Positions 6,198 through 58,668 of a stretch of DNA of 64,000 nucleotides are shown here, in pieces. The position numbers and the translations under genes are program-made. The DNA comes from Acidimicrobiales bacterium (GTDB taxonomy: Bacteria > Actinomycetota > Acidimicrobiia > Acidimicrobiales > SZUA-35). The stretch spans positions 28,075 through 92,074 of the forward strand of contig JBLINY010000005.1 in assembly GCA_047638695.1 (NCBI GenBank), in the 5' to 3' direction. The notes under the pieces were generated by a model that was given only the letters and a program-made list of their open reading frames with translations, was not told where the DNA came from and made no database searches. Each line of letters opens with the position of its first letter. Position 1 is the stretch's first letter.

Positions 6198-6261
6198 TGG
6201 ATGCTTCTCCTGGATGTAGTCCGTCGTCTCCGACTCGTTCGATCGTTACGTTCCCGAGGGT

Positions 6262-7452
6262 TCAGTTGCTACGGATCACGGCTCGGTCTCGCAGTTCGGC
6301 CAGAGCATCGGGATCCAGTCCGAGATCGGTAGCAAGCACTTCGTTTGTGTGGGCACCCAGTGCCGGGGCGACCTCGAGGTCGACCTCACTGGCCGAGAGG
6401 CGCGGCGCCCACCCCAGCATCGGAACCTCGCCGTGTTCGGGGTGTTGAATCGTCTTCACGAAACCGCGCTCGACGAGATGCGGATCGGTGAGTACCTCGG
6501 CGGTGTCGAGCACCGGGCCACCGGGGACACCGGCTGCTTCCAGCTGCTCGGCGATCTCATGCTTTGAGTGTCGGATTGTCCACTGGCTGATTTCGGCTTT
6601 GAGCTCAGCGGTATTGGCGACTCTCGCTTCATTGGTGGCGAACCGTGGGTCCTCCGTCAACTCGCTTCGGCCCATGGCGGTGCAGAGGGCCACGAACATC
6701 TTTGGCGTGACCGCCATGATCATGGCGAAGTCATTCGGGCCGCCCCCGGCCGTCGGGTACAGGTTGTTGACGGCGAAGGCACCGTTCCCGTTTCGTGGCG
6801 CCGGGTTCTCGCCCCAACCAGGGGCCATCGAGATCCGGGTTCGCATGTAGTAGGTCATCGCCTCTTGCATGGAAATCTCGATCCGCTGGCCTTCACCCGT
6901 CCGGAGTTTCTGGACGTACGCGGCAACAATCGCCAACGCAAGCTGGACACCGGTGCCGGAGTCGCCGGTGGTCGGACCGGGTAACAGGGGCTCGCCGTCG
7001 GGGTAGCCGGTGGCCGACAGGGCCCCGGCTGCAGCCTGGGCCACACCGTCAAAGCACTTCCGGTCTGCGTAGGGCCCGGAGAGGCCGAAGCCCTTGACCG
7101 AGGCGTAGATGACCCCGGGGCTGACCTGTTTGATCACGTCGTACCCAATGTCGAGCTTCTCCACCACCCCCGGTCCATAGTTCTCCACGAACACGTCGAA
7201 CTGTGGGGCAAGCTGCAGCAACAGGTCGCGGCCGTCGGCCGTGGCCAGATCGATGGCGACGCTCCGCTTGTTGCAGTTCCAGTAGAAGAAGTAGTCCCTG
7301 GGCATGTCGGCGACCCCGCGGGCCGGATCGCCTGATCTAGGTGGCTCGATCTTCACCACGTCAGCGCCGAACCAGGCCAGTGCCTGTGTCGCTGCTGGGC
7401 CCGCCTCGTACTGAGTCAGGTCCAGAATTCGCAATCCATCGAGTGCCGGCAT
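6262..7452 (-). CDS. Family III (CaiB/BaiF, Frc-like) CoA-transferase
   Basis: N-terminal signature LDGLRILDLTQYEAGPAATQALAWFGADVVKIEPP. 396 aa. It lies directly upstream of the HACL-like gene on the same strand. Confidence 0.85.
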   Translation of the reverse strand: MPALDGLRILDLTQYEAGPAATQALAWFGADVVKIEPPRSGDPARGVADMPRDYFFYWNCNKRSVAIDLATADGRDLLLQLAPQFDVFVENYGPGVVEKLDIGYDVIKQVSPGVIYASVKGFGLSGPYADRKCFDGVAQAAAGALSATGYPDGEPLLPGPTTGDSGTGVQLALAIVAAYVQKLRTGEGQRIEISMQEAMTYYMRTRISMAPGWGENPAPRNGNGAFAVNNLYPTAGGGPNDFAMIMAVTPKMFVALCTAMGRSELTEDPRFATNEARVANTAELKAEISQWTIRHSKHEIAEQLEAAGVPGGPVLDTAEVLTDPHLVERGFVKTIQHPEHGEVPMLGWAPRLSASEVDLEVAPALGAHTNEVLATDLGLDPDALAELRDRAVIRSN

Positions 7453-7529
7453 CGGTCTCCCTTGTTCCCGTGGACCCTATGCGTTCGACCGAGTGCGTGC
7501 TGAGGGCCGAGTCAAGGCTGTGGGCGCGG

Positions 7530-8675
7530 TCACCGAACCGATCCCGCGTCCCGCAGCTGAGCGATCTCGTCAGCCCCGTAGCCGGCGTTGGCCAGAACAT
7601 CATCAGTGTCGGCCCCGGGATGGGCCGGCGGTCCCGATACAGCCGACGGCGTACGGTCGAAGCGCGGCGCGGGAGCCGGCTGCCGCACACCAGCAACATC
7701 GACGAACGTGTCGCGCTGTGTGTTCTGCGGGTGCTCATATGCCTCGGGAATCGTCAGCACCGGAGCGAAACAGACATCGGTTCCGTCCATGATCTCGCAC
7801 CATTCGGCTCGAGTCCGAGTGATGAAGATCTCGGCCATTTCCGCCCGACGTTCGGGCCAGCCGCCCTTGTAGCGCTGCGCGTCCCATTCGGGCCCCTCGC
7901 GGTCGGTCAGGCGAAGAAGTTCCGCGTAGAACTGAGGCTCGATCGAGCCGACCGAGATGTATTCGCCGTCGGCGCACTTGTACACCCCGTAGTAATGAGA
8001 GGCTCCGTCCAGCTGATTCTCGCCGCGAGGTCGTAGGGCGCCCTGATGTTGGGCACCGTGCATGGACGTCATCAACATGGCGGCACCGTCGACCATGGCG
8101 GCATCCACCGTCTGGCCCTGTCCCGACCGTTGGGCCTCGACCAGCGCGCCGAGGACTCCCATTGCCAGGAGCATCCCTCCACCCCCGAAGTCGCCGATGA
8201 GGTTGAGTGGCACGGTCGGTGGCTCATCGGGAGAGGTGCCGATATGGGCCAGACACCCGGCGAGAGCGATGTAGTTGATGTCGTGACCGGCCATCTGGGC
8301 ATAGGGGCCCTCCTGTCCCCAACCAGTCATGCGGCCGTAGACCAGACGGCTGTTTCGGGCCAAACAAACGTCGGGGCCAAGGCCCAGTCGTTCCATCACC
8401 CCGGGGCGGAAACCTTCGATGAGGGCGTCGGCTTCCCCGGCCAGGCGAAGGACGATCTCGATGCCGGAGGGAGACTTGAGATCAACTCCTATCGAACGAC
8501 GACCACGATCGAGCGGGCTGATGGGAGGTTCATCGGGAAACTCCTCAGGCACGTTCGAAGCCCGATCGATTCTGATCACGTCCGCCCCCATGTCGGACAA
8601 CACCATCCCGCAAAAGGGAGCAGGGCCAATCCCTTGGAGCTCGACGACGGTCATACCGGACAAAGGACCACTCAT
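7530..8675 (-). CDS. mcr: Alpha-methylacyl-CoA racemase-like family III CoA-transferase
   Basis: MSGPLSGMTVVELQGIGPAPFCGMVLSDMGADVIRIDR...GWGQEGPYAQMAGHDINYIALAG...LNLIGDFGGGGM...IEPQFYAELL follows the recalled M. tuberculosis Mcr sequence closely along its length. Confidence 0.8.
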   Translation of the reverse strand: MSGPLSGMTVVELQGIGPAPFCGMVLSDMGADVIRIDRASNVPEEFPDEPPISPLDRGRRSIGVDLKSPSGIEIVLRLAGEADALIEGFRPGVMERLGLGPDVCLARNSRLVYGRMTGWGQEGPYAQMAGHDINYIALAGCLAHIGTSPDEPPTVPLNLIGDFGGGGMLLAMGVLGALVEAQRSGQGQTVDAAMVDGAAMLMTSMHGAQHQGALRPRGENQLDGASHYYGVYKCADGEYISVGSIEPQFYAELLRLTDREGPEWDAQRYKGGWPERRAEMAEIFITRTRAEWCEIMDGTDVCFAPVLTIPEAYEHPQNTQRDTFVDVAGVRQPAPAPRFDRTPSAVSGPPAHPGADTDDVLANAGYGADEIAQLRDAGSVR

Positions 8676-28675: not shown

Positions 28676-29338
28676 GTGATGAAAGATGTGCGATGGCGCA
28701 CGAATATCATCCTTGTGGAAGCATCACCGATACGCGTAATCCTTTGTGAGTCACGTCGGGTAATTGGGGAGGCGCTAGGTGAGCATCTGACAAGAACCGA
28801 AGGCCTCTACTGTCTCGGCATAGCCAAGAGCTACTTCGCTGCCCGCCGAGCCCTCGCCGGCGTATCGGCCGATGTGGTGCTGGTGGGGCTGAACTTTCAT
28901 GAAGAGGAAGTTCGCTCACTTATCGGTGAATGTGCGCCTGGGCGGGTCGTCTTTCTGGCCAATCAAGTAACACAGTCGATGGTTGCTCTTCAGGCCGAAT
29001 ACCCAACATTTACCGTCGTGTCGGCGGCGGCATCACTGGCTGACCTCGTCGAAAATCTGCGCGGCGAGCCGGGAGTCGATCTTCTTGGCGATGCCGTGCC
29101 GACCGGGCACCTATCGCCCCGTGAGTCCCAGACGCTGAGTCTGCTGGTTCAGGGGATGAGCCCGACAGACATCTCTGAACATCTGTACGTCTCGATTCAT
29201 ACGGTCCGCTTTCATATCAGGGCACTACTGGCCAAGTTGGACGTGAGTAGTCAGGCCGCGGCGATCGTGGCCGGAATCGAGCAAGGACTCGTGTCGCCCC
29301 CGGCACTTACGTCCCACGTTCACGCCGGGGTCGCCTGA
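28676..29338 (+). CDS. LuxR/GerE-HTH regulator with a degenerate (pseudo-)receiver domain
   Basis: C-terminal LSPRESQTLSLLVQGMSPTDISEHLYVSIHTVRFHIRALLAKLDV is a LuxR-type HTH. The N-terminal receiver-like fold has CES where the DD pair should be and VVLVGLNF where the phospho-Asp should be. Confidence 0.75.
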   Translation: MMKDVRWRTNIILVEASPIRVILCESRRVIGEALGEHLTRTEGLYCLGIAKSYFAARRALAGVSADVVLVGLNFHEEEVRSLIGECAPGRVVFLANQVTQSMVALQAEYPTFTVVSAAASLADLVENLRGEPGVDLLGDAVPTGHLSPRESQTLSLLVQGMSPTDISEHLYVSIHTVRFHIRALLAKLDVSSQAAAIVAGIEQGLVSPPALTSHVHAGVA

Positions 29339-29507
29339 GGTAGGCCGAGATCGGTACCGCTGCTGCGATCTGCACCCGCTGCCGCGACCAGCACGACCGG
29401 TGGCCGTCTCGCGCCAACCCATCGCTATTTCACGAACAAGTCCCGAGGACGAACAACCTCCCAAAATTGGTAAGTGTCACCGACAGGGGTTGACCTGCGC
29501 AACTACG

Positions 29508-30230
29508 GTGCATTCCTTGACCACGAGTCAGCACGTTTCCCGGGTATCGCTCGTCGACGACCATCGCTTGTTTGCCGAGGCGCTAACTCTGGCCCTTGAA
29601 CTTTCAAGTGATCTTCGAGTCACGAGCAACTCCATCGATGCTCCGACCGGCTTCGATGCCATCGTCCAAACCCAGCCGGATGTGGCAGTTGTCGACTACC
29701 GGCTCAAGGGGTCCGACACAGGAGTTGACCTCGCCCGGCGCATTCGGGCGGCCGAGGGCCGGGAATCGGCCTGGTTGGCGCGGCTGCCCATCGTCTTGTT
29801 GACCGGGTTCCCTACCCCCGGCGTTCTGCGAACAGCGGCCACGCTTGACGGCGTAAGCGTGCTGTCGAAGGACTCGCCGATTGTCGACATCGTGGCGGCG
29901 CTGCGGGCCGTTCTCGTCGGTACGGCGCTAACTGCCATGCCGGAGCAGAATTCGTTCGGTCTGACGCGCGGTGAACTGGAGGTACTCGAGTTCCTGTCGA
30001 CGGGTTTGAACGCCAGCGAGATTTCTCGAACGCTTTGCGTGACGATTCATGCCGTCCGAGCTCGGATAAAGACGACCCTCAAGAAGCTCGACGTCAACAG
30101 CCAGCTTGAGGCAGTTGCGATAGCCACCCGACGTGGAATCGTTGTCCCGCCACAGAGTGACCAGAGGTCCAAGGGCGTCGGTCAGCTTCACCACACTTCC
30201 CAGCTGATCCCGGATCATTCTGCCGTTTGA
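29508..30230 (+). CDS. NarL/FixJ-family response regulator (REC + LuxR HTH)
   Basis: VSLVDDHRLF (DD), VAVVDYRL (phospho-Asp), LLTG, LSKD. HTH LTRGELEVLEFLSTGLNASEISRTLCVTIHAVRARIKTTLKKLDV. The start is uncertain: GTG 29508, TTG 29490 or GTG 29400. Confidence 0.8.
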   Translation: MHSLTTSQHVSRVSLVDDHRLFAEALTLALELSSDLRVTSNSIDAPTGFDAIVQTQPDVAVVDYRLKGSDTGVDLARRIRAAEGRESAWLARLPIVLLTGFPTPGVLRTAATLDGVSVLSKDSPIVDIVAALRAVLVGTALTAMPEQNSFGLTRGELEVLEFLSTGLNASEISRTLCVTIHAVRARIKTTLKKLDVNSQLEAVAIATRRGIVVPPQSDQRSKGVGQLHHTSQLIPDHSAV

Positions 30231-30818: not shown

Positions 30819-31445
30819 ATGACCTTCACACCCGGCATCAGTTCGATCACGGGTCGCATCAACTCCATTGAGCAGAAAATCGCTCAGCTCGAACAGCGGG
30901 GCCGTACGAATGGCCTTGAGCCACTCGGCTTTGGGATGATGCTCGACAATCAAGTCGCGGCGAACGCTCAGGTCACAACGTTGGGTGGTGTGTTCGATAG
31001 TGCAGGCTTGACACCCGCGACTCAACGAGCGCCCGGCCAGTACGGTCGACTCCAGCCCCCGGCAGCACTCGTGGCCTTCGGCAACGGGCAGGTGCCGGCG
31101 GCAGCCCTCGAGCCCGTCGGCGATACGGGCCACCGTCTATGGGCTCCTGCAGCCAACGGCCTGACTCGTCTCATAGCCAATGCCGAAGCGGCCGGAGTGA
31201 CGATTGGGATCACCGACAGCTACCGACCGCTTGGTGTTCAAGAGCGACTGGCGAAAGAGAAGGGTCTCTACAGCCAGGGAGGGCTGGCAGCCACACCAGG
31301 GACCTCAAACCACGGTTGGGGACTGGCGACAGATCTCGACTTGGATGCCGACGCCCTTGCGTGGATGCGAGAGAACGGACAGCGGTACGGGTTTGTCGAA
31401 GACGTGCCACGCGAGTCGTGGCATTGGACCTACCGGCCCGACTGA
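30819..31445 (+). CDS. Peptidase M15 (VanY / D-Ala-D-Ala carboxypeptidase-like) cell-wall hydrolase
   Basis: ITDSYRPLGVQERL...ATPGTSNHGWGLATDL...AWMRENGQRYGFVEDVPRESWHW contains the H-x6-D ... H zinc-ligand pattern of M15 peptidases. The N-terminal ~60 aa are coiled-coil-like. Confidence 0.75.
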   Translation: MTFTPGISSITGRINSIEQKIAQLEQRGRTNGLEPLGFGMMLDNQVAANAQVTTLGGVFDSAGLTPATQRAPGQYGRLQPPAALVAFGNGQVPAAALEPVGDTGHRLWAPAANGLTRLIANAEAAGVTIGITDSYRPLGVQERLAKEKGLYSQGGLAATPGTSNHGWGLATDLDLDADALAWMRENGQRYGFVEDVPRESWHWTYRPD

Positions 31446-31481: not shown

Positions 31482-31715
31482 TCAGGTTTTCTTCGGCGGC
31501 CTCGGAAGCTGAGCGGTGCCAGACGAAGCCGGGCGGGCCGCTGCATCGCGGTTGGCTTGGCTGATCTCGGCCGCCACTTCGTCTCGATGCACCGAGACCT
31601 CGCGCGGTGCTCGAATGCCGAGACGAACCTGGTCGCCGCGAATCTCAATGACGGTCACAATGATGTCAGAGCTGATCACAATCGATTGGTTGGGACGTCG
31701 ACTGAGTACGAGCAT
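31482..31715 (-). CDS. csrA: Carbon storage regulator CsrA
   Basis: MLVLSRRPNQSIVISSDIIVTVIEIRGDQVRLGIRAPREVSVHRDEV is the canonical CsrA fold sequence. The start ATG 31715 overlaps the fliW stop (ATGA). It has a 25-aa basic/Pro-rich tail. Confidence 0.9.
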   Translation of the reverse strand: MLVLSRRPNQSIVISSDIIVTVIEIRGDQVRLGIRAPREVSVHRDEVAAEISQANRDAAARPASSGTAQLPRPPKKT

Positions 31716-32197
31716 CAGGCCACCACCAAGGGTTCCTTGGTGGTGTAGTCGCCGGTGTTGAGAACGATCTGGCGCCCACATCGAGACTTGTTGTTCACGA
31801 TGATCGGCCCCAGAAGGTTGGCGGTGACGTCGGTGAGGTCATCGCCGTCATAGTTGGTCGTGAGGAGGAGGTAGACCGCAGATTCTGTTGGATCGTCGAG
31901 ACCGATCTCGGCGAGGACATCATCGGGGACATCCAGCTCGTAGTCGGGGAAGAACGACCACGGATGCATGGCTAGGAAGGCAGTCTCGGCATCTTCGACG
32001 CTCTGGATCCAGAAGTAGTCGTCATCGATCTCGATCACGGCGTAGCTACGCCCCTCAGGAAAGCCGAGAATGCCCGGCCCGAGGTCGTAAATTTGCTCGT
32101 CGTCTAGGTCGAGCTCCCCCAACCGTGTCGAACTAACTTTCACCTTGGTGAGCCTACTCCCGGATGACCTGTCGGTCTGGGTTCTTCGGCTACTCAT
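31715..32197 (-). CDS. fliW: Flagellar assembly factor FliW
   Basis: LGELDLDDEQIYDLGPGILGFPEGRSYAVIEIDDDYFWIQSVEDAETAFLAMHPWSFFPDYELDVPDD...ANLLGPIIVNNKSRCGRQIVL is a typical FliW. The start is uncertain: ATG 32197, or the GTG at VKVSS. Confidence 0.85.
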   Translation of the reverse strand: MSSRRTQTDRSSGSRLTKVKVSSTRLGELDLDDEQIYDLGPGILGFPEGRSYAVIEIDDDYFWIQSVEDAETAFLAMHPWSFFPDYELDVPDDVLAEIGLDDPTESAVYLLLTTNYDGDDLTDVTANLLGPIIVNNKSRCGRQIVLNTGDYTTKEPLVVA

Positions 32198-32528
32198 CGT
32201 CGCCGATCGGCAGCGGTATACCGTAGTCCTGGGCATCCGCTGGCTGGTCGGTCGGCGAGACCTCATCAGCTGGCTGAGGCTTGGCACTCGGCATCAGGCT
32301 GCGTACCACTCGGGTGAGAACTGACGCACCGACGACGCAGGCGAGAACAACGATAACGAAATGGGCGATAGCCAACTCGTACTGTTCCCGACCGGTGGCA
32401 GCGGCGAGCAACGAGTTGCGGCCGAGGAAGAGACCGAGGAGTAGCGCCAGGCCGAGAACACCGCCGTCCAGCCGGGTCGAGGACCCGGCTGCGACCAGCT
32501 CGACCCGCGACGTCGGCTGGTCAGCCAT
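32190..32528 (-). CDS. Small two-TM membrane protein with an acidic C-tail, in the position normally held by flhG
   Basis: The start is taken at ATG 32528 (MADQPTSRVELVAAG...), overlapping the flhF-like stop by 8 nt. Hydrophobic spans GVLGLALLLGLFLG and HFVIVVLACVVGASVL. No homology recognised. Confidence 0.5.
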   Translation of the reverse strand: MADQPTSRVELVAAGSSTRLDGGVLGLALLLGLFLGRNSLLAAATGREQYELAIAHFVIVVLACVVGASVLTRVVRSLMPSAKPQPADEVSPTDQPADAQDYGIPLPIGDDE

Positions 32529-33702
32529 GTCCGGCGTTGGTCGACATGGCGAGGAGCAGTCCGGCATCGACGGAACGGCCGCCGACGCTGGCTACCGGCA
32601 CGCCGCAGTCGAGGAGGTCGAGCAAGTAGACGGGATCGGCTTGGTAGGACAAGTCGATCACGACATCGCCTCCGAAGCGTTGCATGATCGAGAAGATTCT
32701 TGTCGGCGGCAGCACGTCGTCGATCGCTAGCCGCATCACATTGGAACCGGCGAGTTGCGCCACCTCGATGCAGCGACGGGCCTGAGCCACGAAGGACGAA
32801 TCGATGACGACGATGCCTTTCCGATCGGATGCCTTCCAAAGAGCCAGGCGGTCGTTCAACTCTTCGCTCGATCGAGCCAGTTGCCAAGGAAGGACATCCA
32901 CCTCGTGATCGCGGCATCCGCTGACGACCACAAGAGAGCGCGGCGCGGTTGTTTCGTTGTGTTCCAGCCGGTCAGCTACCGACAGAGCCGAACTCAGACC
33001 GCCGATGATCGTGATGATCTGACTCGTGGAATCGATGGTGGGGAGCGATCTATCGAACGAGTCCAATTGAGCCCAGAATTCCTCGGGGTGTGCTGTTGCT
33101 GTCGGTTCCTTCAGTGTTGGTGCTGTCGGTTCCTCCAGTGTTGGTGCTGTCGGTTCCTCCAGTGTTGGTGCTGTCGGTTCCTCCAGTGTTGACGCTGTCG
33201 GTTCCTCCAGTGTTGCAGCTGCTACCCCGATCACGGTCGTAGCTATTGGCTCAGACAGGGTGGCATCTTCCTCGAGTTCGTCGTCCAGGATCTGGGCGAA
33301 GCTCTTCTGCGGCTCGGTCGCCCGACCTTTGGAGGGAGGGCGGCTCAGTTCGATGCGTTCCTGCACGCTGATCGCCTCGGCTCGTTCCAACAGCCCATTC
33401 GGAATTCTCCGCCTTGGAGATGGCGAACGGTCGATCTCTTCGACGAATGTGGGCTCGGGCGGCGAGTCGTCAAGGTCGGCGGCTACGTCGGGCATCGCGA
33501 TGACGTAGCGTTCGTCAACCTTTGCAGACGCCCCGTCGGGAGCGGCAACGACCTCGAAGCTCTCGGTCGTGAAGAAGCCACCGAGGCCGCCGGAACGGAT
33601 TTTGTTGGCCTCGAGAATTGAGGCATCCGACCCCAATTCCCTTCGGACCTGTTCCAGAAGGGCGCTGAGTTCGGGACCGGTATAACGACGTTGATCAGTC
33701 AT
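32521..33702 (-). CDS. flhF: FlhF-like protein with a degenerate SRP-GTPase domain
   Basis: The N-terminus YTGPELSALLEQVRRELGSDASILEANKIRSGG...FEVVAA matches the FlhF B-domain pattern, and the gene follows flhA. The C-terminal domain is colinear with the FlhF G-domain but has IIGGLSSALS for GxxGxGKT, SGCRD for DTYR and VIDSSF for DTAG. Confidence 0.7.
   Translation of the reverse strand: MTDQRRYTGPELSALLEQVRRELGSDASILEANKIRSGGLGGFFTTESFEVVAAPDGASAKVDERYVIAMPDVAADLDDSPPEPTFVEEIDRSPSPRRRIPNGLLERAEAISVQERIELSRPPSKGRATEPQKSFAQILDDELEEDATLSEPIATTVIGVAAATLEEPTASTLEEPTAPTLEEPTAPTLEEPTAPTLKEPTATAHPEEFWAQLDSFDRSLPTIDSTSQIITIIGGLSSALSVADRLEHNETTAPRSLVVVSGCRDHEVDVLPWQLARSSEELNDRLALWKASDRKGIVVIDSSFVAQARRCIEVAQLAGSNVMRLAIDDVLPPTRIFSIMQRFGGDVVIDLSYQADPVYLLDLLDCGVPVASVGGRSVDAGLLLAMSTNAGHG
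33097..33216 (-). repeat. In-frame 24-nt tandem repeat x5 encoding (LEEPTAPT)n in the flhF-like linker
   Basis: The unit tgctgtcggttcctccagtgttgg repeats five times with 1-3 mismatches in the outer copies. The protein reads TLEEPTASTLEEPTAPTLEEPTAPTLEEPTAPTLKEPTATA. Confidence 0.95.
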
Positions 33703-33708
33703 GGTTCA

Positions 33709-35766
33709 TCATCCTGTAGGGGGTAGAGCGGACGGTTGGATCTCAACCAGGCCTTGCGTCTCCACCTGCACTTGGGGCCCGAGCTCTTCGATCGAGAGCA
33801 CCGGCGCCATAACTTCGGTGAGAGCGAGCAGGTGGCGAAGTGGGCGGCGAAGTGTGCGAGACGTGAGGATCACCGGAGCAAGACCACGCTGCTCGACCTG
33901 GGCGACCTTCGTTCTGAAGGCGTGAATTACGCCCTGAACATCGTTTGGTTCGAGTTGGAAGTCGGTTCCGTTGACACCGTCGCGAAGGCTTGTCATGAGT
34001 TTGTGTTCCAGCATCGGGTCGATGGTGAGTACCGGGAGCACCCCGTTGGCCGTTGCGTTTCCCGCTGATATCGACGGGCCCAACGCCACCCGGACCGACT
34101 CGGTGAGCTCCCGCACGTCGCGTGTGAGGCGTGCCCGTTCGCTCACGACGTCGATGATTCGGACGATGTCACGGATCGGTACCTGTTCGGACAACAACTC
34201 CTGGAGGACACGTTGGAGTTCGGCGATTGTGAGGTCGCTGGCGATCAGTTCCTCGACGACAGCGGGGTCGGTCTGGCGAACGAGGTCGATCAGCTCCTTC
34301 ACTTCCTGGCGGCTGAGCAGATCGGGAGCGTTGCTGCGGACGACTTCGGCAAGGTGCGTCGTGAGAACCGATGACCGGTCGATGATGGTTGCGTCCTGAC
34401 CTTCGGCCAGAAACCGCTGTTCCTCGGGAATCCACTTTGCCGGGAGCCCGAAGACCGGCTCGTTCTCGATCGGCCCGGGCAAGCTGTCGAGCGACTCGCT
34501 GATCACAAGCACGTGACCGGCGGGGGCTCGACCTCGGCCCATCTCGACACCGTGGACCATGATCGCGTACTCGCCGGGGAGCAGATCCATGTTGTCTCTG
34601 GTGTGCACCGCCGGAATGATCAGTCCGAGTTCTAGAGCCAACTTGCGACGCAAGGCACGGACTCGGTCGAGCAGGTCTCCACCGACGGCGGTATCGACAA
34701 GATCCACCATGTCGATCGCCAGTTCCAGACCGAGCGGTTCGGGGCGAATTTCGCCGGCGAGAAGCTGCGGGTCGTCCGGATCGATGTGGACTTCGTCGTC
34801 AAGGGCTTGCACGAGGGGCTGTGCGGCTGCGGCGATCTGCAGGCGCCGTGAGATGACGAGCATCGAACCGCCGACCGTGATGAAGGGAAGGAAGGGAAGC
34901 CCGGGGGCGAGGGCAAGGCCGGCGATCGCCATGCCGCCGAAGCGCAGAGCCTTGTGTTGGGCGCCGATCTGCGCCGCGATGTCAGAACCGAGATCGGAAC
35001 CACCGGTGGCGCGGGTGACGATGATGCCACTGGCGATAGAGATCAGAAGTGCCGGGATCTGGCTCACCAGCCCATCGCCGATAGTCAAGGTCGAGAAGTT
35101 GTTGACCGCTTCAGAGACTCCCATACCTTGTTCGACAACACCGATGACCATGCCGCCGAGCAGGTTGATTACCGTGATGAGCACGCCAGCGATGGCGTCG
35201 CCCTTCACGAATTTCGAAGCACCGTCCATCGCTCCGTAGAAATCCGCTTCCTGGCTGATTTCTTCGCGTCGGTTGCGAGCGGTCTCTTCGTCGATGAGGC
35301 CGGCTCCGAGGTCGGCATCGATAGCCATCTGCTTACCTGGCATGGCATCGAGGGTGAAACGAGCCCCGACCTCGGCCACACGCGAGGCGCCGTTGGTTAT
35401 GACGACGAACTGAATGATCACGAGGATCAGAAAGACGACGAGTCCGACCACGATCGAGCCGCCAACGACAAAGGACCCGAACGATGTGATCACGCTGCCC
35501 GCTGACCCCGTTGTCAGGATGAGGCGGGTCGAACTCACGTTCAAGGCCAGCCGAAAGAGGGTGGCGACAAGAAGGAGCGACGGAAACGATGCCATATCGA
35601 GCGAGCGCGTCGACAGGATTGTGGTGAGGAGCAGCGTCACCGCGAGCGCCAGGTTGACGGCTAGCAGTAGGTCGAGCACGACCCCGGGAAGCGGGATGAT
35701 CATCAAGGCAACAATGCCGATGACTAGTGCGGAGAGCAGCCCTCCACCAATACCTTTACTGGTCAC
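33709..35766 (-). CDS. flhA: Flagellar export apparatus protein FlhA
   Basis: 685 aa. N-terminal polytopic region with FPSLLLVATLFRLALNVSSTRLIL and DAMPGKQMAIDADL. C-terminal cytoplasmic domain. Confidence 0.95.
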   Translation of the reverse strand: MTSKGIGGGLLSALVIGIVALMIIPLPGVVLDLLLAVNLALAVTLLLTTILSTRSLDMASFPSLLLVATLFRLALNVSSTRLILTTGSAGSVITSFGSFVVGGSIVVGLVVFLILVIIQFVVITNGASRVAEVGARFTLDAMPGKQMAIDADLGAGLIDEETARNRREEISQEADFYGAMDGASKFVKGDAIAGVLITVINLLGGMVIGVVEQGMGVSEAVNNFSTLTIGDGLVSQIPALLISIASGIIVTRATGGSDLGSDIAAQIGAQHKALRFGGMAIAGLALAPGLPFLPFITVGGSMLVISRRLQIAAAAQPLVQALDDEVHIDPDDPQLLAGEIRPEPLGLELAIDMVDLVDTAVGGDLLDRVRALRRKLALELGLIIPAVHTRDNMDLLPGEYAIMVHGVEMGRGRAPAGHVLVISESLDSLPGPIENEPVFGLPAKWIPEEQRFLAEGQDATIIDRSSVLTTHLAEVVRSNAPDLLSRQEVKELIDLVRQTDPAVVEELIASDLTIAELQRVLQELLSEQVPIRDIVRIIDVVSERARLTRDVRELTESVRVALGPSISAGNATANGVLPVLTIDPMLEHKLMTSLRDGVNGTDFQLEPNDVQGVIHAFRTKVAQVEQRGLAPVILTSRTLRRPLRHLLALTEVMAPVLSIEELGPQVQVETQGLVEIQPSALPPTG

Positions 35767-35839: not shown

Positions 35840-37018
35840 TTACGCCCTCGTAGTAGAGCGGGTCGGCGAATCTTGACGTCGGTTTCGGTTCGGGGAGCCG
35901 GGTGGATCGACATCATCTCGAATTGGCACCTTCGAGCTGGGAATGGTCACACGGTGCACGATCGAGTCGTCAACGCCGCGAGGACGAAGGACGAACGCCA
36001 GGACGATGGCGACGGCCTCGAAGAAGTCTTCCGGTATCGACTGTCCGACTTCGGCAATGGCATGAAGAGCTCGGGCGAGGGGAGGGGCTTCCACGATCGG
36101 AACTTGATCAATTCGAGCCCGTTCTCGAATGCGAAGGGCGAGCTCCTCTGTCCCCTTGGCCACAACAACCGGGGCCTTTCCGTCGTTGCTATAGGCGAGG
36201 GCAACCGCGTAGTGCTGCGGGTTGACGACGACGACGCTGGCGTCTTTGACGGCGGTCAACATCTGGTTCCTAGTCAGCTTGGCGTGGGCGCTGCGACGGC
36301 GGCCCTTAACCGAGGGGTCACCATCGGTGTTGCGATGCTCCTCTTTGACTTCATGCAGCGACATCTTTAGCTTTCGCATCGACTGCCATCGCTGGAAGGC
36401 GTAGTCGGCCATGCCGATCACCGCGCCGACCAATGCGCCAAGACGCAGCACCAAGACGAGCTGTCCCACCAGTAGCTCGGTTGAGATTCCGAGACTCAAC
36501 CCGCTGGCGAGCAGGTGATCACGGGCTGCGGCAAAGAGGGTGGTTGCGACCAGCACACCGAGAACTGCGAGACGCAGCACTGCTTTGGCCGTCTCGACGA
36601 CGCTTTGAACGGAGAAGATCCGTTTGAAACCAGCTTTCGGCGAGACCCGCTCCCATTTGGGCTTGAGCGGATGGCCGGTGATGACCAGCCCACCCTGAGC
36701 CGCCATGCCGATGATCGCCGTTGCCACGACGAAGCCAAACAACGGTAGCAAGCCCAGCACAGCATCGCGGACGACGTCCGACGTGCCCGACAGAACTGGC
36801 CCAGTCTCGCCCGATGCTGAGAGCTCAATGAGGCGCGCCGTTCCTGTGCCCGTCTGGCGCAGCAGCCTGGTGAGAATCGGGGGCAGGATGAAGCTCGCCA
36901 GCAACAACGTGATCCACTGGACTAGATCGACCGAGCGCGGAATCTGACCCTTCTTGCGGGCATCGTTGAGACGCTTCGGAGTTGGTTTCTCGGTCTTCTG
37001 GCTGCTGTCGTTTGCCAC
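35840..37018 (-). CDS. flhB: Flagellar export switch protein FlhB
   Basis: MANDSSQKTEKPTPKRLNDARKKGQIPRS is the canonical start. The autocleavage site reads NPQH (VVVNPQHYAVAL) rather than NPTH. There is a C-terminal extension of about 40 aa. Confidence 0.9.
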   Translation of the reverse strand: MANDSSQKTEKPTPKRLNDARKKGQIPRSVDLVQWITLLLASFILPPILTRLLRQTGTGTARLIELSASGETGPVLSGTSDVVRDAVLGLLPLFGFVVATAIIGMAAQGGLVITGHPLKPKWERVSPKAGFKRIFSVQSVVETAKAVLRLAVLGVLVATTLFAAARDHLLASGLSLGISTELLVGQLVLVLRLGALVGAVIGMADYAFQRWQSMRKLKMSLHEVKEEHRNTDGDPSVKGRRRSAHAKLTRNQMLTAVKDASVVVVNPQHYAVALAYSNDGKAPVVVAKGTEELALRIRERARIDQVPIVEAPPLARALHAIAEVGQSIPEDFFEAVAIVLAFVLRPRGVDDSIVHRVTIPSSKVPIRDDVDPPGSPNRNRRQDSPTRSTTRA

Positions 37019-51125: not shown

Positions 51126-51535
51126 ATTCAAAACAGGCACAGCGTTACCGAGAGGACGGCATGGCCGTCACCCCACGACCACAGCTCGTCGTCAAGCTCT
51201 ATGAGCGACTGGCTTCTGACCTATTTCAGGCATCGAAGGCTGCAGGCAGCGGTGAAGTGGAAGCGGCGCACACTGCGTTGCTTCACGCTCAGGACATCGT
51301 CTTCGAGCTCACTCTCGCCCTCGATGTGGATGCCTGGGCAGGCGGCGCTGGTCTTCGTGACCTTTATCAACATCTGAGCGGCAGGCTTCTTGAAGCCAAT
51401 GTTCACAAGTCGAGGGAGATTATCGACGAGTGCTCCATGCTTATTGCTCCCCTGGTCGGAGCGTGGCAAGAGGCACTGCAGATCGTGCAGCAGAGCCGGG
51501 TCGCGAGCCCGGCATACGCGGCGGGCCAGGCGTAA
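51122..51535 (+). CDS. fliS: Flagellin chaperone FliS
   Basis: 137 aa. QAQRYREDGMAVTPRPQLVVKLYERL...LHAQDIVFELTLALD fits the FliS four-helix pattern. GTGA overlap with fliD. Confidence 0.8.
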   Translation: MNSKQAQRYREDGMAVTPRPQLVVKLYERLASDLFQASKAAGSGEVEAAHTALLHAQDIVFELTLALDVDAWAGGAGLRDLYQHLSGRLLEANVHKSREIIDECSMLIAPLVGAWQEALQIVQQSRVASPAYAAGQA

Positions 51536-51537
51536 AC

Positions 51538-51846
51538 GTGTCTGACCAAGATCATCATGGTGCGTGGGGCGAGGTCCTCGATCTGTTCGAGGCAGGCCTA
51601 GCCCATCATCGGTCGCTACGCGATGGAGTGAGTTTGGACGGTGCCGACAACCCATGGCCGCCTTCGGAGCTGCCGAGTGGACCGGTGCCGCCCCACCATG
51701 AGCCCCGAGCTCGACAACTCTTACGTCAGGCCGATCAGATTTCGGGCCAGCTGATGACACAAATGTCCGAGCTGGAGCCACCCCGACGCCCTCGAGCGGT
51801 GGCGCGGCCGGTGCCCAGCCATGCCAGGTGGACCGCTCGATTGTGA
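51538..51846 (+). CDS. Hypothetical protein in the fliT position
   Basis: GTG 51538 lies 2 nt after the fliS stop. 102 aa, Pro/Arg-rich second half, no motif recognised. Coding status is uncertain. Confidence 0.3.
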   Translation: MSDQDHHGAWGEVLDLFEAGLAHHRSLRDGVSLDGADNPWPPSELPSGPVPPHHEPRARQLLRQADQISGQLMTQMSELEPPRRPRAVARPVPSHARWTARL

Positions 51847-52347: not shown

Positions 52348-52752
52348 ATGCCCGGTCCCTTCCATTCACTGAGCATCGCCTCGTCTGGCATGAACGTGTA
52401 TCAGACATGGCTCGACGCCGTTGCCGACAATGTCGCCAACACCAACACTATTCGGGGCACCGACGAGGACGCCTACCAAGCGCGCTTCGTTATCGCCCAA
52501 TCTGAGGAGATCGATGGCCGGCCGGCGGGCGCCGCCGTCGCTGGGGCTGCCTTCGGTAGCGCTGAGGGTGTCCTCGTGTACGACCCGAGTCATCCGCTCG
52601 CCGACGACGAGGGCATGGTGCGGGCCCCCGACATGGACATGACCAATCAGATGACCAACATGCTTGCTGCCCAACGGGCCTACCAGGCAAACGTTGCGGC
52701 ATTCGAACGAGCGCGGGACGCCTACATGCGCGCCCTCGAGATCGGTACGTAG
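52348..52752 (+). CDS. flgC: Proximal rod protein FlgC
   Basis: [27 protein letters not shown] and C-terminal [28 protein letters not shown]. Confidence 0.9.
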
Positions 52753-52756
52753 AGCC

Positions 52757-53062
52757 ATGATCAACCCAGTCGCGGGCGTGAACGTCGCCGGATCTTCTGC
52801 CGCCGGGCGGGCCGCCACGCAGCGTGCCGCGGGCCAAGAAGAAGCAGGTTTCGGTGATTCCGTGGGCTCGATCCTGGAGAATCTCCAGGGGGCCGAGGCC
52901 AAGGCCGATGCGGCTGCACTTGGTGCAGCCACTGGTGATCTGAACTCGGTGAGCGACTACATGATCGCGGCGACTGAAGCGCAGCTCACCACAGAGGTCA
53001 CGGTTGCGGTTCGAAACCGAGCCCTTGAGTCGTTCAACGAGATCATGAGGATGCAGGTCTAA
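52757..53062 (+). CDS. fliE: Hook-basal body protein FliE
   Basis: 101 aa. [20 protein letters not shown]...[40 protein letters not shown]. The start is ATG 52757. Confidence 0.8.
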
Positions 53063-54672
53063 TGGCCGAGAATTCGCTCGAAGCTTTCACCGGTGCCAGC
53101 GTGTCGTCATTCCGACGCATGAGTCTGAATCAACGGGTCCTTCTCGGGGCCGTCTTTCTGGCCGTCGTCGGCGCCGTCTTCTTCATCAGCCGGCTCGGCG
53201 GCTCGACCTCCATGGGGGTGTTGTACTCGGGACTTGATCCCGATAGCGCAGCCGGCATCGTGGCGGAGCTAGAGAGTCAGGGCGTTCCCTACGAGCTCTC
53301 AGACTCCGGCCGAGTCATCAGAGTTCAGCGAACCGATGTCGCTGCAGTCCGGCTCGACATGAGCGCTGCCGGTCTGCCCGACTCGAACGATGGCTGGTCG
53401 ATTCTTGACGACCAGGGCATCACATCCTCTGAGTTCGATCAGCGCGTCGGGTACCAGCGAGCGATGGAGTCCGAACTGGCGTCAACTATCGCCGTCATTG
53501 ACGGAGTGGCACTAGCGAATGTTCACCTGGTCATTCCAGAACAAGACCTCTTCGTCGACGACGAGATCCATCCCTCTGCTTCGGTTCTCCTGCAAAAGGA
53601 CCCGGGGGCTCAGCTGACCGCAACTCAGATCCAGGCGATCGTGAATCTCGTTGCTTCCTCGATCGAAGGTCTGAGCGCCATCGACGTCACCGTCACCGAC
53701 GACGAGGGTCGTCTTCTCGCCGGCGGTGATGAAGATGGTGTGGCCGGGATGGAAGCGGACAATCAGACCCGGATGCGGCAAAGTTATGAGGCTGATATCG
53801 AGGACCAACTGACCCGCCTGTTGACGGCAGTCGTTGGCCCCGGTCGATCAGTGGTGACCGTGGCCGCCGATCTTGATTTCGACACCGTGCTCACCACCCA
53901 GGAACAGTTCAACGAGGCGACAGACGCCGCCAACCAGACACTTCCGCAAGCGGAAACAACCCGGCTGGAGCGGTACGGGGATGTGGCAGCCCCAGACCTC
54001 GGTGTCGTCGATATTGAGGCTGAAATTCTGGAGGGTCCTGACGCGACCACCGATGGGTCTGCCACATACCAGCTCGATGAGCGAGATGTCGTCTATGCGC
54101 TCAACTCAGTTGTCACCAGCACCGAGAGGGCGCCCGGAGCAATCCGCTCGCTTTCTGTTGCGGTGGTTATCGACGAGGAGCTCGTCCCGCCTGACCGCCT
54201 CGTCGAGATCGAAGGGATGATCGCAGCCGCAATCGGCTCCGACCCCGACAGAGGAGATGTTGTTGCGGTCAACCTGTTGCCGTTCGACATCTCCCTGGAA
54301 GAACAGGAGGCCGCCGCCGTGGAGGTCGCTGCTGCCCAGGAGGAAGCGGCGTCCTCGGGCGGCGATGGGCCTATGGCTTTGATCCGGCTCGGCGCGGCAA
54401 CAGTTATTGGCTTGTTCGTTCTGATCGGTGGCCTGTTCATGGTGCGCAAAGCCAGCCGTCGTGAGGTCATCGACAGCATCGATCTTGAATCGCTGTCGGC
54501 GGCAACGGGCGACGACCCCAATGCGACCGACGAGAACGGTGAGCCACTCCGTACACCCCAGTTAGGCGAGGCGACCGAAGAAGACCTGCTCGAGCTCGTC
54601 GCCAATCAGCCTGAAGACATCGCAGTAGTGCTCCGTCAGTGGTTGTCGCAACCGGAGGAGAACAACCAATGA
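53062..54672 (+). CDS. fliF: MS-ring protein FliF
   Basis: 536 aa. N-terminal TM, then LYSGLDPDSAAGIVAELESQGVPYEL, then a C-terminal TM and an acidic tail. TAATG overlap with fliE. Confidence 0.9.
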   Translation: MAENSLEAFTGASVSSFRRMSLNQRVLLGAVFLAVVGAVFFISRLGGSTSMGVLYSGLDPDSAAGIVAELESQGVPYELSDSGRVIRVQRTDVAAVRLDMSAAGLPDSNDGWSILDDQGITSSEFDQRVGYQRAMESELASTIAVIDGVALANVHLVIPEQDLFVDDEIHPSASVLLQKDPGAQLTATQIQAIVNLVASSIEGLSAIDVTVTDDEGRLLAGGDEDGVAGMEADNQTRMRQSYEADIEDQLTRLLTAVVGPGRSVVTVAADLDFDTVLTTQEQFNEATDAANQTLPQAETTRLERYGDVAAPDLGVVDIEAEILEGPDATTDGSATYQLDERDVVYALNSVVTSTERAPGAIRSLSVAVVIDEELVPPDRLVEIEGMIAAAIGSDPDRGDVVAVNLLPFDISLEEQEAAAVEVAAAQEEAASSGGDGPMALIRLGAATVIGLFVLIGGLFMVRKASRREVIDSIDLESLSAATGDDPNATDENGEPLRTPQLGEATEEDLLELVANQPEDIAVVLRQWLSQPEENNQ

Positions 54673-55688
54673 CCGACGTCGTCCCTCAAACCGAGTTCCC
54701 CGGCGCTCGAAAAGTCGCCATCCTGCTTCTTCGATTGGGAGTCGAGAAGGCGGGACCGCTGCTTTTCGGACTGAAGAAGCACGAGGTGGCGGCCGTAGCC
54801 CGCGAGCTGGCAAGCCTCGGCATGGTCGACGCCACCACGGGAGATGAGGTGCTGCAGGAGTTCATTACCGCTGCGGCGGGAGAACCACCGCTCCCCATAG
54901 GGGACCCGGAGCTCGCTCATCACTTCTTGGAGGAGGCCCTCGGGGAGCGGACAGCCCGCGAGATCCTTAGCCACATCGATAGCACCGCACCCACCGTTCC
55001 CTTTCAGTTCTTCGATCGGCTCGACCCCGCGATTGTGGCCTTGAACCTCAGCCCCGAACATCCACAGACGATTGCCATGGTCTTGTCAACGCTCAACGTC
55101 GAATACGCAGGGGCCGTGCTGGAGAAGCTGCCATCTGAGGTGGTGCCCGAGGTGGCCGTTCGACTGGGCTCGATAGAGAAGGTCTCGAGTGCAGCGGTCC
55201 GGGAGGTCGAGATAGCCATCGAGGAGCGTGTGCGACCAAGCATGGAGAATCGCTTCTTCTCGACAAGTGGCGGCGTCGATGCTCTCGTCAAGCTTCTCGG
55301 GAACCTTCCAAAGGAAATGGGCGAACAGATCCTGGCCGCGCTCGACGAACACGATGCTGAGTTGGGAGCAGAAGTTCGTGCGCAGATGTTCGTGTTCGAT
55401 GATCTGGCGCTGCTCGACGATCGTCAGATGCAGACGGTGCTTCGCTCGGTCGATTCAGCTGTCCTTCCACTCGCTCTGAAGGGCACCAGCTCGGTGGTGA
55501 GGGACAAGTTCCTCGGGAACTTGTCATCTCGGGCCAAGGAAAACCTGGTCGACGAAATGGAGCTGCTCGGGTCGGTGCGAATGGCCGATGTGGCCGAGGC
55601 CCAGGGCGCCATTCTGGCTTCCGTCCAGGAGCTCGAGGCCAGCGGTGAACTTGTAATCAATCGTGGTGGTGATGACTTTGTCTCCTAG
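54669..55688 (+). CDS. fliG: Rotor/switch protein FliG
   Basis: GARKVAILLLRLGVEKAGPLL...MFVFDDLALLDDRQMQTVLRSVD...ALKGTS. ATGA overlap with fliF. Confidence 0.9.
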   Translation: MTDVVPQTEFPGARKVAILLLRLGVEKAGPLLFGLKKHEVAAVARELASLGMVDATTGDEVLQEFITAAAGEPPLPIGDPELAHHFLEEALGERTAREILSHIDSTAPTVPFQFFDRLDPAIVALNLSPEHPQTIAMVLSTLNVEYAGAVLEKLPSEVVPEVAVRLGSIEKVSSAAVREVEIAIEERVRPSMENRFFSTSGGVDALVKLLGNLPKEMGEQILAALDEHDAELGAEVRAQMFVFDDLALLDDRQMQTVLRSVDSAVLPLALKGTSSVVRDKFLGNLSSRAKENLVDEMELLGSVRMADVAEAQGAILASVQELEASGELVINRGGDDFVS

Positions 55689-57653: not shown

Positions 57654-58087
57654 CGCCTATCAAGCGAATGATGCGAATCGCCGAGTTGTGCGAGACGCAG
57701 GAACGCCACGCGCGCCATGAGTTGCTGGAAGCGACGCGCGAGACCGAACGTGCCGAGGCGGCGCTGGCAGCAGTGTTCGACCAATGCCGCCAGGTAGCCG
57801 AGGGGTCAGGCGATCTCTCTCTCACGTTCGGTCGAGCGTTGATCGAGTCCGGCTGGTTGACAGCCCGAGAACGTGAAGAATGCCTCGAACTGAGCCGCGA
57901 TATCACACAGGAGAAGCAGGAAGTCTGGGGCCATCGTCGCTCTCGCCTTGATGCGCTGGCCCGGCTGATCGAGCGTCTGCAGAAGAGCGAAGATCTGGAA
58001 GCGGCTCGCATAGTGGCCGCTGACATCGACGATCTTGTTGCCATGAGCGGTCGGCGGGAGCAGCTCGTCGAGGGGTTACAGTCATGA
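57650..58087 (+). CDS. fliJ: Export chaperone/stalk protein FliJ
   Basis: 145-aa coiled-coil protein directly after fliI, with ATGA overlaps on both sides. Confidence 0.6.
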   Translation: MTPIKRMMRIAELCETQERHARHELLEATRETERAEAALAAVFDQCRQVAEGSGDLSLTFGRALIESGWLTAREREECLELSRDITQEKQEVWGHRRSRLDALARLIERLQKSEDLEAARIVAADIDDLVAMSGRREQLVEGLQS

Positions 58088-58668
58088 ACGTTGGTTCGCT
58101 GACCCGACCTGATGCTGGCGCACGAATCGACGAGCTACGGAGCACCCTGCAGTCTCTCTCCCGGTCTCGGCCGACTGAGGGCCTGAACTTCTCCCGCGAA
58201 CTCGAAAGACACCGCGCAGATAGCCCGGTGGACTCGCGGGAGGTTGCACCTCCATCCGCTCAGTTGTCATCCGACAATCGCGTTTCGGCTGCACCCGAGG
58301 AGTGGCAGAAGCTCTTCGAGATCGCCGGCGTTGTGCACGGTGTTGATCAGGCTTTGCTCGAAGCTGTTGCGGAAGTCGAGTCGGGTTTTGATCCTGGCGC
58401 CGTAAGCCCTGCGGGGGCACAGGGGCTGATGCAATTCATGCCGGCGACCGCGGCTGAACTTGGTGTCAACCCGCTCGAACCGGCTTCTGCCATTGATGGG
58501 GCGGCTCGCATGTTGTCCCGCGATTGGAGCCGTTTCGGGAGCGTTGAGCTGGCCTTGGCGGCCTACAACGCCGGTGCAGGTGCGGTTAGTCGACACGGTG
58601 GAATCCCGCCGTACGCCGAGACTCAGCGTTATGTCGAGAAGGTCATGGCTGCATGGGGGAGAGGTTGA
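58084..58668 (+). CDS. SLT-domain lytic transglycosylase embedded in the flagellar operon
   Basis: LLEAVAEVESGFDPGAVSPAGAQGLMQFMP...LALAAYNAGAGAV carries the catalytic E-S, GLMQ and AYNAG motifs. No signal peptide or TM is visible in the first 80 aa. Confidence 0.8.
   Translation: MNVGSLTRPDAGARIDELRSTLQSLSRSRPTEGLNFSRELERHRADSPVDSREVAPPSAQLSSDNRVSAAPEEWQKLFEIAGVVHGVDQALLEAVAEVESGFDPGAVSPAGAQGLMQFMPATAAELGVNPLEPASAIDGAARMLSRDWSRFGSVELALAAYNAGAGAVSRHGGIPPYAETQRYVEKVMAAWGRG

Follow-up and report, generated by a model that had tools for sequence, protein, structure and literature searches.

The window analysed here is a stretch of 64,000 nucleotides with a GC content of ~61% (contig JBLINY010000005.1 of the Acidimicrobiales bacterium assembly GCA_047638695.1, positions 28,075 to 92,074 of the forward strand). 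It holds a complete flagellar gene cluster that spans roughly 31.4-62 kb, and our subject is two genes on the minus strand of that cluster, one encoding a 393-aa FlhF-like protein and the other a 112-aa protein with two transmembrane (TM) segments. The minus-strand genes are ordered fliM, fliN, fliO, fliP, fliQ, fliR, flhB, flhA, the 393-aa FlhF-like open reading frame (ORF), the small ORF, fliW and csrA; the plus strand carries genes for a sigma factor, flgN, flgK, flgL, motA, motB, fliL, two flagellins, fliD, fliF, fliG (54639-55688), fliH, fliI, an SLT transglycosylase, fliK and flgE. The FlhF-like gene (32521-33702 including the stop codon) lies directly downstream of flhA (33709-35766; 685 aa; Pfam FHIPEP, E=2.5e-239), from which it is separated by a 6-nt gap, and flhA is in turn preceded by flhB (35840-37018). 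The two-TM gene (32190-32528), recognized from its ORF, its hydrophobicity and its conserved homologues, is followed by fliW (31715-32143; 142 aa; Pfam FliW, E=2.8e-31) and csrA (31482-31715; 77 aa; Pfam CsrA, E=6.2e-23). The metagenome contig Ga0535667_0000465 from JGI is the same DNA, and its gene calls are identical, including those of the FlhF-like gene, fliW and csrA. FlhF and FlhG form the textbook switch that sets the site and number of flagella, and the extent to which FlhF function needs GTP is still debated.

The FlhF-like protein opens with an FlhF N-terminal FliG-interaction domain (FID; residues 5-55, 33538-33690, minus strand like all features of this gene). Residues 5-82 match positions 4-56 of the NCBIfam FlhF model TIGR03499 (E=6.9e-10), and a profile of this head made from 83 N-termini of the homologous family described below aligns with canonical FlhF N-termini at an hhalign probability of 98.5% (E=1.6e-15, 41% consensus identity). 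TIGR03499 is matched by 72 of 87 family members, only by way of the head. When a canonical Clostridia FlhF is used as a tblastn query, the sole match in the window is 33286-33690 (E=5.7e-12). The whole protein scores 39.4 bits on TIGR03499, below the 174-bit family cut-off, and gives no match to Pfam SRP54 at the gathering score. With the full-length protein hhalign gives a probability of 97%, a value that stems from the N-terminal head and was set aside as evidence for the C-terminal domain.

That domain (residues 206-389, 32536-33087) is best described, from AlphaFold2, Foldseek and hhalign, as a degenerate G domain of the signal recognition particle (SRP) GTPase type, here called pseudo-G. 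AlphaFold2 predicts a six-stranded β-α domain at residues ~229-389 with a predicted local distance difference test score (pLDDT) of 80-92, and modelling of the domain by itself gives a pLDDT of 83.7 and a predicted template modelling score of 0.81. When this model was compared with 350,542 PDB chains by Foldseek, the 11 best matches were all SRP-type GTPases (FtsY, SRP54 and FlhF; TMq 0.55-0.65), including FtsY 2q9a (E=5.3e-4, template modelling score 0.64), 1okk_D (0.65), the crenarchaeal 5l3s_D and Bacillus subtilis FlhF 2px0 (E=3.2e-3, 0.56, probability 1.0); no MinD/ParA protein was found among the top 50 matches. The secondary-structure elements correspond one-to-one and in order to those of canonical FlhF. 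A profile of the C-terminal domain alone (87 sequences) was aligned by hhalign with canonical FlhF G domains (59 sequences) over 119 columns in register (P=4.5e-4), with β1, β2, the insertion-box strand, β3 with its Asp, and β4 all in place. Column shuffles score 11.0±1.6 and shuffles of 8-column blocks 18.7±1.5, against 30.7 for the real alignment, a value that none of 300 shuffles reached.

Within this fold the GTP-binding motifs are almost entirely gone. The relic of G1, the P-loop, occupies residues 229-240 (IITIIGGLSSAL, 32983-33018) and aligns to VALVGPTGVGKTTT with a 2-residue deletion; in the profile alignment IITIIGGLSS--ALS stands opposite the canonical VALVGPTGVGKTTTIS. The G2 (DTYR) relic, residues 257-265 (LVVVSGCRD, 32908-32934), was placed by hhalign and column statistics, with VVVSGcR facing LITVDTYR and followed by a 13-residue deletion that removes the insertion-box helix. 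At G3 (DTAG), residues 296-303 (GIVVIDSS, 32794-32817) align to LIFIDTAG with the Asp as the sole survivor, GIVVIDSSF facing ELIFIDTAGRS in the profile alignment. The G4 (TKxD) position, residues 347-356 (VVIDLSYQAD, 32635-32664), has no such motif; its pairing of VVIDLSYQ with IIFTKLDE follows from the order of strands and helices only, as the profile alignment ends just before G4. Across 87 aligned representatives, Lys, Ser and Thr are absent from the GK[ST] positions of the P-loop columns and neither G2 nor G4 can be found, while G234 follows β1 in every sequence and the G3 residue D301 is kept in 77, with Glu in 6 more. GxxGxGK[ST] occurs in 0 of 147 family proteins. In both AlphaFold2 models β1 (229-234) leads directly into α1 (236-249), and therefore no phosphate-binding loop is left. 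The motif columns and the models together suggest that the FlhF-like protein has lost nucleotide binding, and they speak likewise against GTP-dependent homodimerisation and stimulation by FlhG. A switch could nevertheless persist if the pseudo-G domain had a non-canonical mode of binding for a nucleotide or some other phosphorylated ligand, for which the Walker-B-like D301 and the invariant Gly after β1 might be put forward; however, Lys, Ser and Thr are lacking from the loop after β1, which is one or two residues long, both G2 and G4 are missing, the catalytic insertion-box helix is deleted and no FlhG-type activator was found, so that we regard such binding as very improbable.

An earlier note on this DNA, made from the sequence alone, had recognized an FlhF-type N-terminus and a C-terminal stretch of ~170 aa colinear with the FlhF G domain, and both are borne out, the former by TIGR03499 and hhalign and the latter by the profile alignment, its shuffle controls and the SRP-type structural matches. 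Its mapping of the motifs is reproduced by the profile alignment for G1-G3 and by element order only for G4. Its statement that every GTPase motif is degenerate stands: G1, G2 and G4 are lost, and of G3 the Asp survives. It had also named an intact P-loop or a fold outside the SRP-GTPases as findings that would contradict it, and neither emerged: the alignment shows a degenerate G1, and the predicted structure, compared with FlhF as the note had suggested, is of the SRP type, with 2px0 among its relatives.

The head and the pseudo-G domain are joined by a long, disordered linker rich in Pro, Glu and Ala, in which the AlphaFold2 model places isolated low-confidence helices only. One of these, residues 103-120 (LLERAEAISVQERI, 33343-33396), is conserved in an 11-sequence alignment, where L104, L105, E106, R107, S112 and R116 are invariant; it is predicted with low confidence and shows no similarity to the canonical N domain. 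A second conserved helix in the model, residues 135-148 (FAQILDDELEE, 33259-33300), has F135 in at least 90% of 87 sequences. The middle region was considered as a remnant of the N domain and rejected for want of an hhalign signal. The linker also contains a 24-nt tandem repeat (33090-33215; 5.2 copies, 95% matches, Tandem Repeats Finder score 217) that encodes TLEEPTAP units; a protein from another metagenome contig (P0001), 96% identical, is 8 aa shorter, exactly one such unit, so that the copy number of the repeat is polymorphic. Linker expansion accounts for the range of lengths among FlhF-like proteins, 342-766 aa. Divergence is far more rapid in the FlhF-like protein than in the FlhA encoded beside it: relative to the Acidimicrobiales metagenome-assembled genome (MAG) OZ244139.1 (L003, 10001-11794), the FlhF-like protein of the window is ~32% identical overall and 73% identical in the head, whereas FlhA is 82% identical.

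The gene for the 112-aa protein starts at an ATG at 32528 and overlaps the stop of the FlhF-like gene by 8 nt (ATGGCTGA). Its product has hydrophobic segments at residues ~20-43 and ~50-75 and an acidic tail, the last 24 residues comprising seven Asp or Glu and no Lys or Arg; both termini are probably cytoplasmic. Homologues were collected by an iterated search with a hidden Markov model (HMM), and in ~67 of the 73 loci that extend far enough (~92%) one of them is the next gene after the FlhF-like gene, in the same orientation. The start codon nearest to the upstream stop lies at a median of -4 nt and falls within ±50 nt in 56 of 64 loci, values that the choice of the nearest start biases toward small gaps. 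The genes around the pair vary, and fliW-csrA follow the two-TM gene in some loci only. No Pfam model covers the family. The actinobacterial holin-X family PF07332 was tried for the 112-aa protein and rejected; because its score of 24.2 bits is below the gathering cut-off of 28.4 and it was hit by only 1 of 41 homologues, it is treated as a chance match between two-TM proteins. No fusion of the FlhF-like and two-TM proteins of the Rosetta-stone kind was found: in the long members of the family nothing follows the pseudo-G domain, and the long ORFs that seem to be present in related loci are read in alternative frames, as is typical of high-GC DNA.

No trace of FlhG was found near the pair. The deviant Walker A motif of MinD-type ATPases, KGGxGK[ST], does not occur in the 64-kb window, and tblastn with canonical FlhG returns no match there (best E=0.17). 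The same search with canonical FlhG or the FlhF NG domain finds nothing in the window or in 82 other loci, and the deviant Walker A is absent within ±6 kb in 79 actinobacterial loci. A Clostridia locus (L075), the only non-actinobacterial one with full context, served as a positive control for the detection of FlhF and FlhG, and there a canonical FlhF (GPTGVGKTT) is followed by FlhG (KGGVGKT). The earlier note had pointed to the missing FlhG, to a two-TM protein with an acidic tail and an overlapping start in its place, and to fliW-csrA behind it, and had called for a survey of related loci; each of these descriptions holds for the window, and the survey extends the presence of the two-TM gene to most, and the absence of FlhG to all 79, of the actinobacterial loci compared.

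The family is large. An exhaustive HMMER search with the C-domain profile gave 144 clusters at 50% identity, nearly all of the 147 family sequences open with the FlhF-type head, and 318 loci came to light when each GTDB species was scanned through a single genome. The survey of neighbourhoods and taxa refers to the best 80 of these 318 loci, which belong to the Acidimicrobiia (Acidimicrobiales), the Actinomycetes (Micromonospora, Kineococcus, Sanguibacter and Acidothermus) and the Nitriliruptoria (Euzebya and Egibacteraceae), and in nearly all of them the FlhF-like gene lies directly downstream of flhA, as it does in the window. A third protein search added Actinoplanes, Krasilnikovia, Catenuloplanes, Pilimelia, Couchioplanes and Planomonospora. 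The FlhF-like and two-TM pair is the standard arrangement of a large flagellated actinobacterial lineage, not a peculiarity of the source genome. A 1.8-kb contig binned in an uncultured Burkholderiales MAG (L078, CAZCVW010000516.1) encodes FlhA followed by a protein with an FlhF-type head and stops before the C-domain; it may be a binning contaminant. Database names for the family are almost all "hypothetical protein", apart from two UniRef clusters automatically named FlhF.

This breadth bears on the possibility, raised by the earlier note as one that would undo its proposal, that an intact flhF exists elsewhere in the genome and that the gene described here is its decaying, non-functional paralog. 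The 64-kb window is the part of the genome in view, which leaves some room for such a copy. However, 144 clusters at 50% identity and 318 loci at the species level share this degenerate architecture, along with invariant residues that are specific to the family, and the FlhF-like gene is therefore not a decaying copy; it sits, moreover, in the canonical flhF slot, and FlhF was not found in these classes when 69 flagellated actinobacterial genomes were surveyed (PMC10746217). With the motif loss family-wide and the pair conserved under selection in hundreds of species, the paralog explanation does not apply and is effectively refuted.

From the head, the fold, the motif columns and the neighbourhoods, we conclude that the gene product is very likely an FlhF-derived pseudo-GTPase that is conserved together with a coupled membrane protein and without FlhG. 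Several observations weigh against this reading or against the fuller explanation built on it below. The C-domain has no Pfam match, SRP54 included, in 87 of 87 members. No HMM-level link ties it to SRP54 or FlhF, and searches of PDB sequence profiles with the C-domain or the full-length family gave spurious matches. By itself the C-domain reaches an hhalign probability of no more than 28-34%. The FlhF N domain is not detectable, residues 95-226 giving no hhalign alignment with the canonical region between head and G domain. The search for a canonical flhF-flhG pair in this organism covers the 64-kb window. The two-TM gene is missing in six related loci (L052 and L079, both Sanguibacter, and L064, L065, L066 and L080). 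Finally, the link between the FlhF-like and two-TM proteins is drawn from gene coupling, which is also compatible with an unrelated flagellar membrane protein.

The first three of these points would suit an origin in which an unrelated Rossmann-like α/β domain replaced the NG domain behind the FID, the more so as generic β-α units did produce spurious matches to designed proteins. The designed TIM-barrel and Rossmann proteins returned by the PDB profile searches were discounted as relatives of the C-domain for being generic β-α units, and the same searches also gave the 53-aa FlhF head 9en1 (E=0.19). Because the hhalign probability is so low, the call of homology rests on fold, register and context together. 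On that combined footing a replacement is improbable, since SRP-type GTPases, FlhF among them, fill all 11 best places in the structural comparison, the in-register alignment scores far above both shuffle nulls, and the domain order and the gene position are those of FlhF. The lack of an HMM connecting the C-domain with SRP54 or FlhF is also the reason why tools that work from sequence only name the protein "hypothetical".

The last two points concern the partner. With the two-TM gene missing from six related loci, the partner cannot be obligatory; in four of them (L064, at 4658-7771, L065, L066 and L080, from Acidimicrobiales or Actinomycetota MAGs) the order is fliR, flhB, the FlhF-like gene, fliW and csrA, with neither flhA nor a two-TM gene in between. 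It is conceivable that the FlhF-like protein acts by itself and independently of nucleotides, as a chaperone for FliG or an assembly factor, and that the two-TM protein is an unrelated operon-mate, such as an accessory of the export gate or the stator. Loci that retain the FlhF-like gene by itself, the lack of any recognizable domain in the two-TM family and the common occurrence in flagellar operons of overlapping genes with unrelated functions all speak for this explanation. It has to contend with the position of the two-TM gene, directly downstream in ~92% of evaluable loci from three classes despite varying neighbours, and with its starts, most of which overlap the upstream stop or lie right next to it; we consider it unlikely, though the strongest of the competitors.

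We favour, with moderate confidence, the explanation that as a whole accounts best for the locus: a pseudo-GTPase descended from FlhF whose head holds FliG and whose two-TM partner anchors it. In Shewanella FlhF the first ~60 aa form a small structured domain that FliG binding requires and that suffices for it, and FliG held by this head can bind FliF, but not FliM/FliN (PMC11236974). By analogy, the head of the FlhF-like protein would bind FliG and deliver it to, or hold it at, the nascent MS ring, and this recruitment of FliG would serve nucleation of the MS ring and C ring. The pseudo-G domain could act as a docking module bound by the co-translated two-TM protein, and the latter would supply a constitutive membrane address. 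Such constitutive anchoring would replace the GTP-dependent dimerisation and the membrane or pole association that FlhG resets in canonical systems, and the module would license or position flagellar assembly without a nucleotide switch. That the scaffold is anchored by its partner and works independently of GTP and FlhG is a suggestion to which we give slightly less than even weight, and it is with a little more reserve still that we propose that the FlhF-FlhG nucleotide switch has been replaced by a switch-less two-protein module throughout the lineage of Acidimicrobiia, Nitriliruptoria and Actinomycetes.

Among the closest known systems, FlhF itself (TIGR03499, PF00448; structures 2px0 and 8R9R, FID 9en1) shares with the FlhF-like protein the slot after flhA, the FID head, the long disordered linker and the SRP-GTPase G fold. 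The FlhF-like protein differs in that G1, G2 and G4 are gone and G3 is reduced to its Asp, the P-loop is 2 residues shorter, the insertion-box helix is deleted (13 residues), the N domain is undetectable and FlhG is absent. FlhG, a MinD-type ATPase, is encoded directly after flhF in Bacillus-, Clostridia- and Vibrio-type clusters, and it is this slot that the two-TM gene takes here. The best functional analogy for the two-TM protein is FipA, a DUF2802 membrane protein of gamma-proteobacteria that is likewise small and encoded beside the flhF operon; it binds FlhF, recruits or licenses it at the membrane, and licenses the formation of the polar flagellum (PMC11620751). The two are non-homologous: FipA combines a single TM segment with a cytoplasmic coiled coil and DUF2802 and strictly co-occurs with FlhF and FlhG, whereas in the protein described here two TM segments are followed by a low-complexity acidic tail and FlhG is absent, and none of 41 members of its family matches DUF2802 at E≤0.01. 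In other pseudo-GTPases and degenerate SIMIBI NTPases, too, the nucleotide motifs have been lost and the NTPase fold persists as a scaffold. The earlier note had called a nucleotide-independent FlhF scaffold with a new membrane partner undescribed. This has to be qualified, as FipA is a precedent for a membrane partner of FlhF and the two UniRef clusters already carry the FlhF name. Of a pseudo-GTPase form of FlhF we found no description in the searchable full-text literature; a 2025 review of FlhF-FlhG diversification mentions neither Actinobacteria nor degenerate FlhFs (PMC12826062).

Several further features of the window were recorded beside the flagellar genes. A VanY-family D-Ala-D-Ala carboxypeptidase gene (30819-31445, plus strand) is adjacent to csrA, convergent with it, and recurs in L002 (12072-12716) and L003 (12942-13814), three loci with gene tables having been compared, of which L001 is the window's own DNA. 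The SLT transglycosylase gene lies inside the flagellar cluster at 58084-58668, and the two enzymes may constitute a peptidoglycan-remodelling pair for a flagellum without FlgJ. At the same end of the cluster as VanY are two regulators of the LuxR/GerE type (28676-29338 and 29400-30230, both plus strand), one of them with a receiver domain; a similar response regulator comes after the VanY gene in L003. Directly 3' of flgE, at the cluster edge, is a gene for a protein with HDOD and GGDEF domains (62190-63695, plus strand), the latter of the diguanylate cyclase type. Two ORFs of 186 aa (51221-51781) and 188 aa (52366-52932) on the minus strand, opposite the interval between fliD and fliF, have no Pfam match and are either spurious high-GC ORFs over small plus-strand flagellar genes or uncharacterised genes.

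For the biology of flagellated Actinobacteria, the main consequence concerns the fate of FlhF. A phylogenomic analysis of actinobacterial flagella concluded that the classes without FlgFG are also without FlhF, and its model includes Acidimicrobiia, Nitriliruptoria and Actinomycetia (PMC10746217). Because the family described here fills the flhF slot in exactly those classes, it seems that flhF was not lost but remodelled to a point where BLAST and Pfam no longer recognize it, which corrects the published picture. A likely role is thereby given to two "hypothetical" genes of most actinobacterial flagellar clusters, including those of the zoospore-forming and genetically tractable Actinoplanes. 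A natural and widely conserved FlhF that keeps a FliG-binding head and the shape of the G domain, and has neither a nucleotide site nor FlhG, also represents a ready-made separation-of-function variant. If the proposed mechanism is true, neither GTP hydrolysis nor a MinD-type ATPase would take part in defining where flagella are assembled, for instance in the polar tufts on the zoospores of actinomycetes.

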